Source of the DNA: an uncultured Planctomycetales bacterium | GTDB taxonomy: Bacteria; Omnitrophota; Gorgyraeia; Gygaellales; Profunditerraquicolaceae | Direction: 5' to 3' | Assembly: GCA_964354585.1 (NCBI GenBank) | Contig: CAYHAI010000012.1 | Location: forward strand, 1-52,390 | DNA length: 52,390 bases | Shown here: positions 16,496 to 23,703 of the stretch, piece after piece | How positions within the stretch are numbered: the stretch's first letter is position 1 | Layout of the letters: every line of letters begins with the position of its first letter | Translations under genes and position numbers: made by a program | The notes under the pieces: model-generated | Told to the model about the DNA's origin: nothing | The model's database searches: none | What the model saw: only the letters and a program-made list of their open reading frames with translations

Positions 16496-18331
16496 TTATT
16501 GCCTTCCCATTACTATCAGCGCCCAAGCCCTTGACCAGTGTAGCCTGCCCTGTTCAAACTTACGCCAGAGGCCATTAGCGTATCTCTTGTTTATATTACC
16601 TTTAGATAAGGCAACCTTCAAAAGTTGATTCCCTTGTTTTCTTAGCCATAAATCAAAAGGGAAAGTAAACCCTTGTTTTTTTCTATAAATAATTTCTCTA
16701 GGCAACATATCCTTAAGGGATTTTGCTAGAAGCGGCTTGGGTATATTTTTATCAATTTTTAGGCGGGAATCTACAGCGGCTATATAATCCACCAGAATAT
16801 GGTCAAGGAAAGGCACCCTGGTTTCCACAGAATGATACATACTCATAAAATCGGTATCTTTCAGGAGTTGATTCTGCAGGTACAAATTTATTTCCATATG
16901 TGAAAGCCAATCGATAGGGTTTAAAGTATTAAGTATTGAGTATTGAGTATTGAGATTAAAATCATCTATTGAATTGCTTACTTCTTTCTCGGTAATATCC
17001 AAAATTCTTGCTACATCCTTTGGAACAAAGAGCCCTCTGATAGCTAAGTAGAGCGCCAGATGGTCATCTTTTTGAAGATAATTTAACTTACGCCAGCGAT
17101 CATTAAGACCGCCGGTTAAAGCAAGCGCAGACCGCAATATTTTCGGCAGACGATTTATAGCCTTAAGCAACCGGATTTTTTTAAATGATTCGTAGCCGCA
17201 AAAAATTTCATCTCCTCCTAAACCTGACAATACTGCCTTCAGCCCTGCCTGTTTAGCCGCCCTGGAGACAAAATAGGTATTCACTCCATCAACCGTGGGT
17301 TGGTCCATCGCCGTAAAAATATTATCTATCTCGGCATAAAAATCCTTCTGTGTTACTTTTATCTGCCGATGGTCTGTGCGGTATTGCTCGGTAATCATCT
17401 TCTGGTAGGGGAGTTCAGAATATGCTTCTTCATCAAAGATAATGGAGAGCGTGGTAATCGGAATATCTCTGGCCTTACTGGCCAGGGCAACCAGAACTGA
17501 TGAGTCTATGCCTCCGCTTAAAAATACACCCAATGGCGCATCGCTAATCAAATGCAGGTCTATCGCTTCAGTCAGAATAGAACGCAAACTGCTATATATA
17601 TCTTCAGTGTCTTTTAACTTAGCTTTAGTGAAACTATCAATAGGGTCGTAGTATTTTACCAGTCTTTTTTTACCATTCTCAATTAACATATAACTGCCCA
17701 CTGATAGAGAAAAAACATTTTTTATTGTCGTCCAAGGCGCCGGGATATAACCAAAAATAAAAAAGGCAATATCCGCCTTCTGGTTACGTTCAACCGGGAT
17801 AATTCCGCTTTTTACCATAGCGCCCACCTCAGAAGAAAATATGAGCAGTTTATCATCTTGATAATAATAAAGCGGCTTTATGCCAAAGCGGTCGCGGGCA
17901 AGGATAAACCTTGGGATCGGAGATGTTAGGTCATAAATGGCAAAGGCAAACATTCCTCGCAGGCGCTTAAGCAAACCATCAATTCCCCATTCCTTATAAC
18001 CATTGACGACTACCTCTGTATCGGAATTAGAGCTAAGGCTGTAACCTTTTTCTTTTAGTTCATTTTGCAGTTGGCAATAGTTATATATTTCGCCGTTGTA
18101 TGATATCCATACTTTGCCCTCTCTATCAGACATTGGCTGGTGGGCTAAAGGGGTAAGGTCGATTATGGAAAGCCTTGTATTAACGAGGCAAAATCGTTTA
18201 TCAGAACTAAAATAAACGCCATGGTCATCCGGCCCGCGGCGCGTCAAATAATCGCGCATCTTGACTGTGCGGGTAAAATCTATCTCTTTTTCTTCTTTAA
18301 GATTATACGTTCCGGCAATTCCACACATCAT
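16496..18331 (-). CDS. asnB: Asparagine synthase (glutamine-hydrolysing)-family amidotransferase, probably amidating glycan carboxylates
   Basis: MCGIAG N-terminal nucleophile, RGPD, RLSIID, YNGEIYN, ARDRFGIKPLYY, FLSGGIDSS, LSGLGGDEIFCGY, ETRVPFLDH, KKQGF. Confidence 0.92.
   Translation of the reverse strand: MMCGIAGTYNLKEEKEIDFTRTVKMRDYLTRRGPDDHGVYFSSDKRFCLVNTRLSIIDLTPLAHQPMSDREGKVWISYNGEIYNYCQLQNELKEKGYSLSSNSDTEVVVNGYKEWGIDGLLKRLRGMFAFAIYDLTSPIPRFILARDRFGIKPLYYYQDDKLLIFSSEVGAMVKSGIIPVERNQKADIAFFIFGYIPAPWTTIKNVFSLSVGSYMLIENGKKRLVKYYDPIDSFTKAKLKDTEDIYSSLRSILTEAIDLHLISDAPLGVFLSGGIDSSVLVALASKARDIPITTLSIIFDEEAYSELPYQKMITEQYRTDHRQIKVTQKDFYAEIDNIFTAMDQPTVDGVNTYFVSRAAKQAGLKAVLSGLGGDEIFCGYESFKKIRLLKAINRLPKILRSALALTGGLNDRWRKLNYLQKDDHLALYLAIRGLFVPKDVARILDITEKEVSNSIDDFNLNTQYSILNTLNPIDWLSHMEINLYLQNQLLKDTDFMSMYHSVETRVPFLDHILVDYIAAVDSRLKIDKNIPKPLLAKSLKDMLPREIIYRKKQGFTFPFDLWLRKQGNQLLKVALSKGNINKRYANGLWRKFEQGRLHWSRAWALIVMGRQ
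16924..16954. repeat. Heptamer tandem repeat (AAGTATT x2, GAGTATT x2, GAG) inside asnB
   Basis: Read directly; encodes the low-complexity segment LNTQYSILNTL. Confidence 0.8.
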
Positions 18332-18337
18332 CGTTGG

Positions 18338-19435
18338 TTATACAAAGACATCTTTCAGGAAACCAATAAAAACCTTGCCTAAGAGAATCTGTAACTGGGG
18401 GTCTTTAATAATGATAGATATGACCTTAGAATGATTCTCAAAATCTCCAAACTTTTCTATAATACTGGCATTATTCTTAAGAACGGCGAATAATTTTTCC
18501 GTTTCCTCTTGGTTTAACCTCTCATACATTCGTTTTAATTTTAAACCGATATCAATTTCTCTCTCAAATCTCTGCTTCCATTGCCTCTCGTATTCTCCAG
18601 CGTTATTCTTTAATATACAATCAACGAGCATCTCTGCGCAGCGCATCCCGTAATATATACCACCATGGGTTAAAGGCTTTACCTGACAGGCAGCATCGCC
18701 TACTAAAAATATATTTCTATTATGGGTGAGGCATTTTCCTAAAGGCACAACTCCGGCGAATTTTTCTAAAATTTCTCCCTCAATAGACTTCTCTTCTAGA
18801 AATTCGCTTAAATCATGGTAAGGATTATCCGAAATAATCCCTATCCGGACAATACCTTCACCCTCGGGAATAATCCAGGCAAAACAGGGGCTTTTTAAAT
18901 AAACTTGAACGGAATTTTTATCACACTTATCATATCCCATTCTAAATTGCACCCCGCGCAGATACTCTATATTTCCCTTAAAACCTGTGATCTTACGCAG
19001 CGTTGAATTTGCGCCATCTGAACCGATAACAATATCTGCGTAATATTCTCCTTTGTCTGTCTCTACCAGGTAAGCCTCGCCTTCCCTTTCTATGCCGACA
19101 AATTTGGTGTTAAAATTTATCTTCAGTCCAATACCTAAGGCGCGGTCAAACTTTTCCCGGTCTATTACCACGGCCACGTCTTTTCTGTTTATTCTAAAAC
19201 TATCGTGATTTAAGAAAAACTCCGCGCCATCTATCCGATTAATGATGACGTCATCATTAATCGGAACTTTAATTTGAGTGAACACATCCATACTCACCAG
19301 ACCTGCGCAATGAACAGGCCGGCCAATCTCTGGATGTTCCTCAATGATAGTAATGTCAAAATCCCTATCTTTTTCTTTTAGTAATTGCGCGGTATAGCAA
19401 CCGATAGGTCCTGCGCCAATAATTATTATCTTCAT
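18338..19435 (-). CDS. Geranylgeranyl-reductase-family FAD-dependent oxidoreductase
   Basis: IIGAGPIG, EEHPEIGRPVHCAGL, IDREKFD, GSDGANS, FAWIIP, LVGDAACQVKPLTHGGIYYG. Confidence 0.85.
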   Translation of the reverse strand: MKIIIIGAGPIGCYTAQLLKEKDRDFDITIIEEHPEIGRPVHCAGLVSMDVFTQIKVPINDDVIINRIDGAEFFLNHDSFRINRKDVAVVIDREKFDRALGIGLKINFNTKFVGIEREGEAYLVETDKGEYYADIVIGSDGANSTLRKITGFKGNIEYLRGVQFRMGYDKCDKNSVQVYLKSPCFAWIIPEGEGIVRIGIISDNPYHDLSEFLEEKSIEGEILEKFAGVVPLGKCLTHNRNIFLVGDAACQVKPLTHGGIYYGMRCAEMLVDCILKNNAGEYERQWKQRFEREIDIGLKLKRMYERLNQEETEKLFAVLKNNASIIEKFGDFENHSKVISIIIKDPQLQILLGKVFIGFLKDVFV

Positions 19436-19454
19436 CCCGCACCTTCTATTTTAT

Positions 19455-19787
19455 TCATCCCGTACCTTTGATAAATTCATTTTTATTCTTTTCTTTGAAT
19501 ATCTCCAAAGGTGCGGGATTCAAGGCTTTTATTTGATTCAGGCTATTCTTTATTCTAAGTTTTAAGTATGCGTATGCTCTACCAAAGGATTTAAGAGATC
19601 TCTCGCGTATCTTAGCATCTTCTAATGAAATAAAAGTCTCGCAATAGACTAAATTCCAGGGTAGGTATTTCCTTGTATATTGGACTAATCCTAAGTTGTG
19701 CTCCTTTAATCTTTGTTTAATATTCTTTGTATAACCAATATAAAATACACCGTTTTTCTGACTCTTTAAAAGATAAACGTGATACAT
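19455..19787 (-). CDS. Small GIY-YIG endonuclease (SLX1/UPF0213-like)
   Basis: YHVYLL...FYIGYT...RLKEHN...YT....PW.LVYCE......A..RE..LK. Confidence 0.92.
   Translation of the reverse strand: MYHVYLLKSQKNGVFYIGYTKNIKQRLKEHNLGLVQYTRKYLPWNLVYCETFISLEDAKIRERSLKSFGRAYAYLKLRIKNSLNQIKALNPAPLEIFKEKNKNEFIKGTG
19458..19518. mobile_element. Nested 61-bp MITE-like copy with the same ends
   Basis: Ends TCCCGTACCTTTG (19458-19470) and CAAAGGTGCGGGA (19506-19518), again flanked by direct TTCA (19454-19457 and 19519-19522). Confidence 0.7.
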
Positions 19788-19812
19788 TTTGAATACAAAG
19801 AAGGTGCGGGAT

Positions 19813-20523
19813 TCATCCCCTTATCAAATCCTCTCCTCCAATAGATTTAAGAAACTCAAACACCTCTCCTACTACCACTCCGCCAGAAACTGCTTTCTGT
19901 AACGCTATAGCTTTTTGAATATGGTAAAGAAAATTTTCTACTTTACCCCGAGAGAAGAAATATCGGCTCAAGTAAAGATGGATACTTAAGTTCTGAGGAG
20001 AAAGCAAAACTGCTTTCTTAAATTCTTCTTCCGCGCTTTTAGTATCTGATAATTTATCAAATATAGCGCCCAGCCTCTGATGGTAAATGGCATTGGTGGG
20101 CTCCCTTAAAATCGCTCCTGTGAATTCTCTCTTTGCCAGCCCATAAAATTCCATCCTATCGTTTTCGAGTTTAGCATCCAGCATTTTTATATCCAAGGAA
20201 CTGCTCAGCAGCGTATCATCTCCTATCTCTGTAATAATCTGCGCATATTCAAAATAAGGCCTTGAATCATCAGTATTCAAACTGGCAGTTTCTTTTAGCA
20301 ACTTTAATGCCTGGTAATAAAAGAGCGTTTTCTCTATAATTATCTGCTTGTCTAAAGAGCGGCTTTTCTCTAAATAATCTAATGCCTTATCTAAATATCC
20401 CTGCGCGGATAAACGCGAAAATAAAACACATTCGTAAAAGATAAAGAGAAAAATAAACAAACTCATCAAAATTAAGGATTGTTTTTGGTCTAAGTCTTTC
20501 TGCCAGTTACTTAGTAACACCAT
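19813..20523 (-). CDS. Membrane-anchored TPR-repeat protein
   Basis: N-terminal hydrophobic helix, then TPR-like units (AILREPTNAIYHQRLGAIF...AEEEFKKAVLLSPQN). Overlaps the end of the ligase-like gene. Confidence 0.7.
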   Translation of the reverse strand: MVLLSNWQKDLDQKQSLILMSLFIFLFIFYECVLFSRLSAQGYLDKALDYLEKSRSLDKQIIIEKTLFYYQALKLLKETASLNTDDSRPYFEYAQIITEIGDDTLLSSSLDIKMLDAKLENDRMEFYGLAKREFTGAILREPTNAIYHQRLGAIFDKLSDTKSAEEEFKKAVLLSPQNLSIHLYLSRYFFSRGKVENFLYHIQKAIALQKAVSGGVVVGEVFEFLKSIGGEDLIRG

Positions 20524-21844
20524 CGCTAAACCTCGTATAGACCAAGCGATAAGCCAGGCCCATAATCACAAAGAATAACAGGGCATTTGCCGGTATGTGC
20601 AGATTAAAATCTAACAGCGAATATACTAACATTGCAAATATGGACGCCATTGCGCCCAATACCACAGATATAACATAAGCGTTATGCCTTTTCCGCCACA
20701 TCTTCAATACCTTCCTAAAATACAAAATAAAAAACAAAGATATACAGAGAAAACCAACTAAACCCACCTCGGATAATAACTGAAGATAGTCATTATGGGC
20801 ATAGGTAAACAAAATTTGCATGGGGCAAGTCTTATACATAGAAGAGATGCTGGCAAATGTGCCTAACCCTGTGCCAAAAAGATGAAAATCCTGCCATATT
20901 CTTAAAGTATCCCACCAGGAATAGCCATGGCCAAAAACAACCAGCGTCTCATCTTTAAATAGATTAGCAAATCTCTCTAAAACACCTTTAAAATCTATAA
21001 AAAAAATAGATAAAAAAAATACTACAGAAAAACAAACAAGCAAAGTTTTTGTCTTGGGCTTTAAACTATACTTGAAGTTTGACAATGACAACATAAATAA
21101 CAAAACCAGAATATAGACTAAAATGCCGGCCCGGGATAAAGACAAGAGTAGCGCCAAAACCATAATCCACATACAAAGGCCGTAAATAACCCTTTTAGAC
21201 CAAGGCAAATCAGTTAAAAAATATCCTAAGGCCAGGGGTATAATCATATTTATATACCCGCTAAAATTATTGCGGTTAACAAAAGGCCCGAAAGGTGTAA
21301 GTGCTGACCCGGATGCGTCAAACCAATAGACCTTACCCGAATAGGTATATTTCTGGATAATCCCAAATATGCTAATAACGACCCCAAAAAAGATAATTGT
21401 ATTTATAAGGTAGTCGAACTGTCTCTTCGTCTCTATCTTGTTAATAATTAGAAAAAATATGCCTATGTAGGTTAAAACCTTAAATAATTCTGAAAGGGTA
21501 GCATTAGGACAGATGCTTAAAGTAAAAAATGTTTTTGAGGCACCAGCGGGAATAAGATTTTTATATAAATAAGCGGTATTACCGCAAATTATTCTCATTA
21601 AATCTATAGGCAACGGGATCAATTGAAGAACAACGAGACCCAAGAATAATGCAATGGGTAAAATTAGGCCTGTTTCTAAAAAAGAGAATCTTCTTTTATA
21701 GGCCATACCTATCAACCAGAATAAAATCAGTAAAACTACTACAGTTTCTATTATTGTAATCGGCAGGGCAGTCACGCTTCCATAAAAGAGACAGCTAAAA
21801 ATGAGCAGGGGCGCAACGAGATATGGGAAGATAATGCCAGACAT
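20507..21844 (-). CDS. O-antigen ligase / Wzy_C family membrane protein (could be an O-oligosaccharyltransferase or polymerase)
   Basis: About 12 TM helices, GPFVNRNNFSGY, SLSRAG, FGTGLGTF, YAHNDYLQLLSEVGLVG, DFNLHIPAN. Confidence 0.85.
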   Translation of the reverse strand: MSGIIFPYLVAPLLIFSCLFYGSVTALPITIIETVVVLLILFWLIGMAYKRRFSFLETGLILPIALFLGLVVLQLIPLPIDLMRIICGNTAYLYKNLIPAGASKTFFTLSICPNATLSELFKVLTYIGIFFLIINKIETKRQFDYLINTIIFFGVVISIFGIIQKYTYSGKVYWFDASGSALTPFGPFVNRNNFSGYINMIIPLALGYFLTDLPWSKRVIYGLCMWIMVLALLLSLSRAGILVYILVLLFMLSLSNFKYSLKPKTKTLLVCFSVVFFLSIFFIDFKGVLERFANLFKDETLVVFGHGYSWWDTLRIWQDFHLFGTGLGTFASISSMYKTCPMQILFTYAHNDYLQLLSEVGLVGFLCISLFFILYFRKVLKMWRKRHNAYVISVVLGAMASIFAMLVYSLLDFNLHIPANALLFFVIMGLAYRLVYTRFSDGVTK

Positions 21845-21852
21845 AATAAATA

Positions 21853-23703
21853 TTAAGCCTTTTTCTCCTTCTCTTGGGCATAATAATAATGGTAATAATA
21901 GTAAGAGTCTTCTTTCTTTATGTTCACATTGTTCAGGATTACTCCGATAATCCTGGCCTTTGCCTCGTTGAGCCGCTGCCTACAGCTTAAGATAGCTTCA
22001 ATATTTCTAAAACCAGCGCGGATAACATAAACCACTCCATCCGCCATATTGGCTAAGATAGCCGCATCGGTAACTGTAAGCACTGGCGGCGCATCAATGA
22101 TAATTCTGTCAAATCTGGTTTTAAGTTCCCCCAAGAGTTGACGGCTCTTAGCAGAACTTAAAAGTTCCGCCGGATTTGGCGGCCGCGGACCAGCAGGCAT
22201 TAGAAAGAGATTAGGGACGGGGGTGTGTTTTATGACTACATCTAGAGTCGCTGCTCCGGCGAGGAAACTACTTAAACCGTCTTTATTATCTACGCCCAAT
22301 GAACTACCGATGCGGCAACGACGCATATCCGCCTCTAAGAGCAAAATCTTTTCATTGGCATGAGCAAAGATAGTGCCTAAATTTATTGCAACCGTGCTCT
22401 TGCCCTCCTGGGGCGAAGCGCTGGTAATCAGAACTGTCTTAAGAGGCTTGTCTTCCGGAGAAGAGAAGATTATGGAACTGCGGATAGAACGATAGGCTTC
22501 AGCAATCCGGGAGTTAGGCATCTTATGAGATAATAAATCAACGTCTTTCACCGTTTCGGCCTCTCGCCTTGCTGAAGGCACATAACCCAAAAAGGGTAGT
22601 CTTACATATGTCTCAATATCTTCGGCGGTCTTTACCGTAGAATCAAGGTATTCTAAGATGAAAGCCAAAACCACTCCTAAAAAGAAACCTAACATTATCC
22701 CTCTGGATACGTCCTGTTTCCTGTTTGGGCTAAACGGCCCTCCCGGCACCTGCGCTAAATCAATAATGCGGATATTGGTTGTCTCTAATTGTTTAGAGAC
22801 CTCAGTTTCCTTTATTCTTCTTAGCAATGATTCATATAGAGATTTGTCTGACTCTAGTTCTCTTTTTAAGGCGTTATACTGTATGGTCTTGGTATTAAGC
22901 TCAAGGAGTTTCCTGGTCTCATCATCAATACTTTTATTTGCTGCCTCCAATCTGGTGTTGGCATTGAGCATCTTGGGATGCTTTGATTTATAGCGCTTGG
23001 ATGACTCTATAATTTCATTTTCAATCTTTACCTTGTCCCCTTTTAAGCCCTCCAGGATAGACGCTGTTTGTTTCTCTACATCTCCCAGAGAGACAATTGC
23101 ATTCCTCTGTATATAATCGTTTAAAGTCGCCTCGGAATCCTGAAGTTTCTTTTTTAACTCTGTTAATTGTATCTGCAGCCATCCGGTTGCATATTTACTC
23201 GCTTCTGACCTTCTCTCTATATCATCCTTTATATAACTCTCTGCCAAGGCATTGGCAAACTTTGCTGCCTTAAGGGGATCGGTACTTACATAACCCACAT
23301 CTATGAGTTGCGTACCGCCCACAAGATTAACGCTCACCCCTCCTAAAAAGGCGCCCTCAGGCTCCTGCATTCCTACAAAAGCGGTATCACCTGTAGCAAT
23401 AAGGCGTTCTACCACTTTTTTGGCTAAACTCCGCGAAGTAAGAATATTGATTTGGGTCTGGATATATTCCTTATCGATCCAAGCGGAAGGGGAATAGACC
23501 TGCTGGATAGGAACCACATCTGGCATAGTTCTTTCGATAAGGACTTTGGCACTTGTCCGATAAAGAGCAATTTTCTTTAAGGTTTTCATCGTGGCATCGG
23601 TAGTGGTAATGGCAAGGCAAATAAGGATTATCCAGAATCTTCTCTTAACGACAACTAGGTAATCCTTAACCGTTATATCCCTTAATTGGGAAGAAGGTAA
23701 CAT
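21853..23703 (-). CDS. wzc: Polysaccharide co-polymerase / tyrosine autokinase (Wzc/GumC family)
   Basis: Two TM helices around a coiled-coil periplasmic domain, AEAYRSIR, TSASPQEGKST Walker A, EADMRR, IIIDAPP, C-terminal Tyr cluster YYYYHYYY. Confidence 0.92.
   Translation of the reverse strand: MLPSSQLRDITVKDYLVVVKRRFWIILICLAITTTDATMKTLKKIALYRTSAKVLIERTMPDVVPIQQVYSPSAWIDKEYIQTQINILTSRSLAKKVVERLIATGDTAFVGMQEPEGAFLGGVSVNLVGGTQLIDVGYVSTDPLKAAKFANALAESYIKDDIERRSEASKYATGWLQIQLTELKKKLQDSEATLNDYIQRNAIVSLGDVEKQTASILEGLKGDKVKIENEIIESSKRYKSKHPKMLNANTRLEAANKSIDDETRKLLELNTKTIQYNALKRELESDKSLYESLLRRIKETEVSKQLETTNIRIIDLAQVPGGPFSPNRKQDVSRGIMLGFFLGVVLAFILEYLDSTVKTAEDIETYVRLPFLGYVPSARREAETVKDVDLLSHKMPNSRIAEAYRSIRSSIIFSSPEDKPLKTVLITSASPQEGKSTVAINLGTIFAHANEKILLLEADMRRCRIGSSLGVDNKDGLSSFLAGAATLDVVIKHTPVPNLFLMPAGPRPPNPAELLSSAKSRQLLGELKTRFDRIIIDAPPVLTVTDAAILANMADGVVYVIRAGFRNIEAILSCRQRLNEAKARIIGVILNNVNIKKEDSYYYYHYYYAQEKEKKA

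Follow-up and report, generated by a model that had tools for sequence, protein, structure and literature searches.

Among the insertion sequences (IS) and MITEs of bacteria, the Correia/NEMIS elements of Neisseria, ERIC and RUP are familiar examples, and IS200, with a length of ~0.7 kb, is the smallest IS known to us. The Y1 enzymes act on hairpins, insert in one orientation beside a fixed tetranucleotide and drive the expansion of REP repeats, and their peel-and-paste transposition leaves no target duplication. GIY-YIG homing endonucleases, exemplified by I-TevI and the Seg proteins, are either free-standing or intron-borne, and the cut made by I-TevI leaves a 2-nt stagger.

The Ssn proteins are single-domain GIY-YIG nucleases of ~94 aa (PMC11893778, Chenal et al. 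2025, Nat Commun). According to the parts of that report used here, they cut only single-stranded DNA, on one strand, beside a hairpin repeat of the TCCCGC type, and cutting persists when the two halves of the hairpin are placed on separate oligos (PMC11893778). The ssn genes are often flanked by such repeats, and in the same parts of the report the authors likened the arrangement NTS-ssnA-NTS to an insertion sequence and suggested domestication (PMC11893778). The names Omnitrophota and Patescibacteria are absent from the 12 of the 14 PMC11893778 supplement files that were word-searched. A literature search, with subscription journals outside its coverage, did not turn up any account of an inverted-repeat transposon with a GIY-YIG gene in prokaryotes.

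The window, the whole stretch of 52,390 nucleotides that was analysed here, carries a GIY-YIG gene enclosed between inverted repeats, with a second, smaller inverted-repeat element nested in the 3' end of the gene. The features of the locus are as follows.

19435-19811, minus strand: GIY-YIG element (outer), 377 bp, of which 312 bp remain once the nested copy and the duplicated TGAA are subtracted
19812-19815, minus strand: upstream TGAA duplication of the outer element; the TGA at 19813-19815 is the stop of the TPR gene
19431-19434, minus strand: downstream TGAA duplication of the outer element; its TG lies within the ATG at 19433-19435
19813-20523, minus strand: upstream TPR gene
18338-19435, minus strand: downstream FAD-dependent oxidoreductase gene, with its ATG at 19433-19435
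19788-19811, minus strand: left terminal inverted repeat and short leader before the nuclease start codon
19435-19457, minus strand: TGAATAAAATAGAAGGTGCGGGA, the right end of the outer element, which the nested insertion does not disrupt
19455-19787, minus strand: present GIY-YIG nuclease ORF, 110 aa, the last 22 residues from the nested copy
19458-19518, minus strand: nested MITE, 61 bp, a member of the ~60-bp subfamily; its 13-bp arms have one mismatch
19519-19522, minus strand: TGAA upstream of the nested element, a flanking copy
19454-19457, minus strand: TGAA downstream of the nested element; its TGA is the present stop of the nuclease ORF

We hold it likely that these sequences belong to a family of micro-transposons with MITEs, that the nested copy is a separate insertion and that, as we infer, an Ssn-like nuclease which recognises hairpins probably drives the family. 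It seems to be a hitherto undescribed type of bacterial transposon of extremely small size. The family shows all the structural hallmarks of a class II element with MITEs, a known transposase excepted. As in IS and MITEs, there are terminal inverted repeats, a short target duplication, many gene-less copies, nesting and co-transcription with host genes. In contrast to IS, the only protein is a 96-aa hydrolytic nuclease and a known transposase class is absent, and the gene-bearing element, at ~0.3 kb, has less than half the length of IS200. Unlike both IS and MITEs, the insertions are orientation-specific and lie on start codons.

The hairpin cis signal, the fixed orientation to a short target word, the very small size of the elements and the massive expansion of gene-less hairpin repeats are shared with the IS200/IS605 and REP-RAYT systems. 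However, the domain is GIY-YIG rather than Y1 HUH, and a target duplication is present here but not there. Membership in these systems was rejected, as none of the four Y1 genes of the genome is flanked by the repeat core and a duplication is present. Homing endonucleases resemble the present system in having a GIY-YIG catalytic domain within a selfish element, and the nuclease has weak, generic GIY-YIG matches to profiles in NCBIfam (TIGR01453) and PHROGs (phrog_314), NCBIfam holding no specific model. The 2-nt stagger of I-TevI can be set beside one reading of the junctions here, namely a 2-bp duplication between A...T ends. Unlike homing endonucleases, the protein has no separate DNA-binding domain, and inverted repeats and a target duplication are found here. 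A GIY-YIG homing endonuclease gene was also rejected as an explanation, because the protein has a single domain and 65 of 67 flanks are unique, against the one homing site in a conserved gene.

Comparison with Ssn, as described in the parts of PMC11893778 used here, showed the closest similarity in the protein and the repeat. In both systems the gene of a single-domain GIY-YIG protein of ~95 aa (96 aa and one domain in the window, without the nested copy) is bracketed by inverted-repeat DNA, and the repeats have in common a TCCCGC...GCGGGA core and many copies genome-wide (PMC11893778). Recognition of one strand, as in Ssn, would explain the 74:1 orientation bias observed here. However, a single inverted repeat encloses the gene here with its two arms, in contrast to the two complete hairpins of the arrangement described for ssn in those parts of the report. 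The present family shows a 4-bp target duplication, empty sites, MITEs derived by deletion, nesting and the targeting of start codons, none of which was found for Ssn in the parts of PMC11893778 used. The published SRM motif HGTCWY..YYVSBRH..WNVSBRG..RNCYNB does not match the repeat of the window and is not enriched in the genome (4 hits vs. 1-10 in 10 shuffles), none of the hits being closer than 1 kb to any of the five small GIY-YIG genes. By analogy, the present nuclease and its repeat may work like the Ssn/repeat pair, to which they are likened by size, domain and repeat core without being placed as a member.

The ends of the outer element are TCCCGCACCTTCT and AGAAGGTGCGGGA, with a sub-terminal TATTCA/TGAATA motif. 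The terminal inverted repeats are perfect over 13 bp and reach ~23 bp when the TATTCA motif is counted, and the same architecture is found in the loci L007, L011 and L012. The last A of the right end and the TG of the flank together rebuild the start codon of the oxidoreductase gene, and GAAGGTG, located 4 nt upstream of this ATG, looks like a putative ribosome-binding site. As reconstructed from the sequence, the original site must have been an ATGA stop/start overlap between the TPR gene and the FAD oxidoreductase gene. The nested copy shifted the nuclease stop to 19 nt upstream of the host ATG, and the exact overlap is gone in the window. The genes around the element form a surface-polysaccharide-type cluster (window 16496-23703, all on the minus strand), which comprises an asparagine-synthase-like gene, the FAD oxidoreductase gene, the TPR gene, a gene for a multi-pass membrane protein (20507-21844) and a chain-length-regulator/tyrosine-kinase-like gene (21853-23703); apart from two genes scanned by profile, these designations rest on a reading of the translations.

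Contigs assembled from the public metagenome runs X1 and X3 join position 19430 directly to 19812, skipping 381 bp, which correspond to the 377-bp element and one TGAA. The X3 contig is 946 nt long, with 195 and 589 aligned bases on either side, and the X1 contig is 170 nt long. The joint has 5 ambiguous letters, and a single TGAA is kept. These contigs come from strains ~95% identical, and the difference at the site is either an insertion or a precise loss. Empty and filled alleles of one site were both observed, as is expected of an element with terminal inverted repeats. The oxidoreductase orthologues of three other genera (G005, G006 and G027) start with ATGAAG or ATGAAA, with nothing inserted.

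The earlier note had described a nested 61-bp inverted-repeat copy with TGAA on both sides in the 3' end of the GIY-YIG gene, and the analysis confirmed it at 19458-19518. Read on the minus strand, the junctions are ...GCCT TGAA / TCCCGCACCTTTGGAG...ATCAAAGGTACGGGA / TGAA TAAAATAGAAGGTGCGGGA TGAA G..., and the 13-bp arms are GGTACGGGA and GGTGCGGGA, with one mismatch. The TGAA at 19454-19457 doubles as the TGAA of the sub-terminal TGAATA motif of the outer element. The change of C-terminus that the note had described was reproduced in silico: once the 61 bp are deleted together with one TGAA, the ORF has 96 aa, the C-terminus ...IKALNKIEGAG and a TGA stop overlapping the ATG of the next gene, and with the insert the ORF has 110 aa and ends in ...FIKGTG. 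Homologues from a large protein collection agree with the restored end. The EGAG C-terminus, encoded by the right inverted repeat, is present in 31 of the 94, all among the best 53, and an internal EGAG in none of the 94. The PAPL...KGTG tail is found only in P0001, which is 98% identical, has the same nested copy and evidently represents this locus in a different sample. In L007 and L012, from two other Omnitrophota genomes, the site reads TTGAATAAGAAAGAAGGTGCGGGG without interruption where the window has the insert. The TGAA on both sides, the restoration of a conserved C-terminus and these uninterrupted sites bear out the second, independent insertion proposed in the note. The 61-bp stretch is best explained as a separate insertion into a 312-bp relative, whose sub-terminal TGAATA motif supplied the TGAA target.

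With at most one mismatch allowed, the 11-mer TCCCGCACCTT has 5 matches in the window; 100 shuffles gave 0.35 on average and never as many as 5, and four of the five matches are the four ends of the inner and outer elements. The first 12 bases of the outer ends are common to the ends of the nested copy, and the two subfamilies differ in the ends ...CCTTTG (nested copy) vs. ...CCTTCT (outer element). Four solo copies of 59-60 bp (contigs C21, C116, C169 and C185) are 82-84% identical to the nested copy. Because of this identity and its ...CCTTTG ends, the nested copy is assigned to the ~60-bp subfamily; it is a member of a sister subfamily and not a deletion derivative of the outer element. Since the terminal 12 bases are identical, it may have been mobilised by the nuclease of the window or by a sister nuclease. 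Its DNA hairpin (-10.8 kcal/mol) is weaker than others at -16 to -19 kcal/mol. The element-bearing contigs of the runs X1, X2 and X4 all hold the nested copy too, and the insertion is not recent, because it is present in every element-bearing contig of the three runs. Alleles lacking the nested 65 bp alone were not seen among the four metagenome runs, whose short-contig assemblies make this say little. That the family has been active repeatedly is shown directly by the nested copy, which also makes the element's own TGAATA motif a target. A gene-bearing copy of 329 bp at L011 (G022:C20) has ~30 bp extra in its 3' part, including a small palindrome TTTAAATAAAATATCTTTATTTAAA; this lies near the spot that matches the nested copy of the window and may mark an insertion hot spot.

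The solo short copies anticipated by the earlier note do exist. A scripted catalogue found 29 inverted-repeat pairs genome-wide, with ~20 short copies, some of which hold remnants of the nuclease gene. The terminal inverted repeats of the family begin with YCCCGCACCTT, and the 8-mer CCCGCACC occurs 112 times in the genome vs. 18 expected. Reading of the catalogue assigned 12 copies to the outer type, of 73-136 bp plus the 377-bp one; they are flanked on both sides by TGAA (10 of 12) or TGAG (1 of 12), and the flanks of the remaining one do not match. The copies in C143 and at C171:326 encode N- and C-terminal remnants of the nuclease and are internal-deletion derivatives, because pieces of both termini are kept. 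In the nested-copy subfamily, five of nine copies have an identical 4-mer on both sides (TGAA, TTAA, TCAA twice and TTTA), and four of nine have no matching 4-mers, several of these being central in a larger mosaic repeat. The duplicated word always fits T-N-N-A. The junctions are also readable as a 2-bp duplication, because the ends could be written as A...T. Composite or truncated forms with a third internal end are present in C39, C161, C184 and C189. The window holds the sole gene-bearing copy of this end type in an 89%-complete, fragmented assembly, with its tail altered by the nested copy. As to the autonomous and MITE-like members claimed in the note, a real family with MITEs stands, and for the autonomous part we infer that the nuclease is the mobilising enzyme.

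The mosaic repeats consist of 50-77-bp hairpins in the arrangement CGAAYTNA, hairpin, TNARTTCG, flanked by AACTTATGGAACGAAGTGAACATAAGTT-type hairpins. In this genome (G000) they are located at C116 4769-4827, C169 3262-3321, C180 3087-3163, C143 57-107, C179 31-81 and C194 16871-16921, and a search of the genome for an empty version of the mosaic found none. Gene-bearing GIY-YIG elements with CGAAYTTG-ACCCCC outer ends are present in other Omnitrophota (L016, L017, L019 and L025).

A scan of metagenomes with a right-end pattern free of flanks gave 80 loci with 81 right ends (L046-L125), and the elements recovered, all of 66-244 bp, are MITEs; the same pattern found nothing in viral contigs. 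The right flank is TGAA at 74 of the 81 ends, and the 4-mers on the two sides are identical in 66 of the 72 elements with a recognisable left end. Variant duplications (TGGA, TGCG, TAAA, TTCA and TTAA) also occur, and because these variant 4-mers match on both sides, the flanking word is a duplicated target and not part of the element. Of 67 cases, 59 have A and 7 have G immediately before the duplicated 4-mer. The opposite orientation was found once among the 81 ends (a bias of 74:1). The insertion flanks are unique in 65 of 67 cases, and near-identical 73-bp copies are inserted at different genes. The fixed target proposed in the earlier note holds for the outer type, both here and in the metagenomes, but not for the nested-copy subfamily, in which only T-N-N-A is kept.

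The placement on start codons was observed in each set of copies. In the own genome, 10 of 12 junctions, formed by the last A or G of the element and TG, open ORFs of 143-370 aa, whereas 17% of all 4,688 ATGAA sites of the genome open an ORF of at least 140 aa (P ~1e-6); at 6 of the 12 copies the upstream TGA also terminates a long upstream ORF. Of the 11 gene-bearing elements checked in other Omnitrophota, 9 have a junction ATG or GTG with which an ORF of 155-410 aa begins, and in the metagenomes the junction codon starts a host ORF in 66 of the 75 evaluable cases. A share of this bias must be due to purifying selection rather than to targeting. The right end GAAGGTGCGGG(A/G)TG resembles a putative ribosome-binding site, a spacer and a start. 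A stop-free mini-ORF of the type MNPAPS...NK.EGAG, running from the old start to a TGA that overlaps the new start, is present in 31 of 62 unique MITEs, the loci in this genome being C143 2936-3071, C171 326-446 and C179 6087-6204. The lengths of the MITEs are 1 mod 3 in 38 of 62; as the copies are not independent, the distinct lengths were also counted singly, which gives 17 of 35. The reverse-strand frames are likewise often stop-free. Translational coupling through the mini-ORF is only suggestive, because the length bias weakens on this count and the reverse frames are often open.

The profile scan of the sole ORF of the element showed PF01541 and PF10544 alone. The match to Pfam PF01541 (E 1.2e-14) spans residues 1-67 with an intact core, and the residues Y5, Y16, G18, R26, H30 and E62, invariant among 20 aligned sequences, are kept in the window protein, with its catalytic residues undamaged. 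The element encodes no recognised transposase of the DDE, serine, tyrosine or HUH class, the nuclease being its single ORF. The nearest PDB structures are the UPF0213 proteins 1zg2 (E 4.5e-6) and 1ywl, and a structure of Ssn was not found in the PDB. A search of the genome contigs with the single protein gave 3 loci, and homologues are present in 181 of 301 sampled Omnitrophota genomes. Inverted repeats bracket 19 of the 36 gene-bearing homologue matches in Omnitrophota, and at 15 of the 36 the finder, which is crude, detected no flanking inverted repeat. The bracketing repeats differ with the protein subfamily (ACCCCGCACC, ATCCCATCACC, ACCCCCACACC, ACCCCGCCC and others). An MNPAPS... start, which is the flank ATGAA and the left repeat read in frame, is present in 21 of the 94 homologues (21 of the best 53); in the window the left repeat is out of frame with the nuclease by one A. 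We claim no selection for this in-frame joining of the hijacked ATG to the nuclease, since 21 of the best 53 is close to the chance expectation of one-third.

If the nuclease moves the family, the two ends of an element would pair in single-stranded DNA, and the nuclease would recognise the paired-end stem together with the adjoining TGAA and nick beside it on one strand, by analogy with Ssn. Host polymerase and ligase would then complete the insertion, the strand-joining step being unexplained. GIY-YIG enzymes hydrolyse DNA and are not, to our knowledge, able to join strands, and we know of no precedent for the integration step. The outer type nearly always enters the TGAA of an (A/G)TGAA start codon, in one orientation save for the single case given above, and the strict orientation fits a strand-specific mechanism. 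The insertion appears harmless to the host gene, with the start codon rebuilt and the TGA of the nuclease ORF, or of the mini-ORF in half of the MITEs, overlapping that start codon.

The relation between the ends and the nuclease was compared across genomes. The 12-mer end has 10-18 copies in all four genomes with a close homologue (E <= 1e-30), which are mutually related and thus not independent, and reaches 8 copies in 5 of the 297 other genomes. These five, with 8-27 copies and no close homologue, weigh against movement by the nuclease and in favour of a different explanation, in which the copies are true MITEs moved in trans by an unrelated transposase, e.g. a Y1 enzyme, and the GIY-YIG gene is a passenger or selfish rider. 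The genome itself has four Y1_Tnp (IS200/RAYT-like) genes:

C52 62934-63428 (G000): Y1 gene
C54 7290-7634 (G000): Y1 gene
C32 12171-12497 (G000): Y1 gene
C171 11798-12520 (G000): Y1 gene

The Y1 traits cited in the parts of PMC11893778 used here (hairpins, one orientation, a fixed tetranucleotide and REP expansion) would also fit. However, none of the four genes is flanked by the CCCGCACC core within 250 bp, the one match lying inside a coding CGPC motif, and the variant 4-mers duplicated on both sides disagree with a Y1 mechanism. PF01609 and PF00665 transposases were not found in the assembly. The ends covary with the nuclease subfamily across many genera, and the MITEs keep remnants of the nuclease gene, indicating that they derive from a gene-bearing element. 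A trans-acting transposase is accordingly regarded as unlikely. Two observations stand beside these. The Y1 genes are flanked by GGGGACG-type short repeats, which form a separate repeat system. The end 12-mers of G258 (27 copies) and G034 (12 copies), two genomes without a close homologue, are mostly in pairs 32-36 nt apart, forming minimal hairpins.

A domesticated Ssn-type system, which serves the host by restricting incoming single-stranded DNA or by shaping recombination or expression and no longer transposes, would turn the copies into old relics. A reading of this kind was proposed for SsnA/NTS of Neisseria (in the parts of PMC11893778 used), and the arm mismatch and weaker hairpin of the nested copy, as well as its presence in all element-bearing contigs, agree with it. 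We nevertheless give it little credence, since the outer element is present or absent between closely related strains, the metagenome sites are almost all unique, with near-identical copies at different genes, and the strict placement on start codons with their rebuilding is what insertion, rather than a use by the host, would produce. That the inner repeat is a local duplication or recombination product of the ends of two elements, for which the composite forms with a third internal end could be cited, or a chance palindrome, is very improbable given the exact TGAA on both sides, the exactly restored C-terminus, the match of its interior to the solo ~60-bp copies at four loci and the shuffles, none of which equalled the count of end-motif matches.

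Movement by the nuclease itself is thus the preferred reading. A bolder version of it, which we put forward tentatively and at slightly less than even chances, holds that no self-mobilising DNA transposon smaller than these 0.3-kb elements is known and that they use a new class of transposase, a ~95-aa hydrolytic GIY-YIG protein that recognises the paired ends of its own element in single-stranded DNA. The elements would have evolved to land on start codons, rebuild the start, supply the ribosome-binding-like GAAGGTG and keep translation coupled via their own ORF or mini-ORF, and so would colonise the streamlined genomes of Omnitrophota and CPR at almost no cost. If the nuclease moves the elements, the enzymes of transposition would extend to a hydrolytic GIY-YIG domain, autonomous mobile elements would have a new lower size limit, and the spreading of their own hairpin repeats would be a natural role for Ssn nucleases. 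The placement on start codons lets a mobile element sit in an operon junction without harm, the start being rebuilt and the overlapping stop kept. It also affects the annotation of uncultivated bacteria: gene callers start many such genes at the wrong ATG, giving MNPAPS... extensions, and may miss GTG-started host genes behind a MITE.

Other GIY-YIG genes of the genome lie next to tRNA genes. A second small one (L040, C52 69773-70095 of G000), 40% identical to that of the window, is located directly upstream of tRNA-Glu(CTC), and on its other side there are a partial copy of the 5' part of the tRNA and two TCCCGC-type hairpins. This arrangement resembles the outcome of an insertion into the tRNA gene at its 5' end, with a long duplication. 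Two more GIY-YIG genes, on contig C75, adjoin tRNA-Ser genes.
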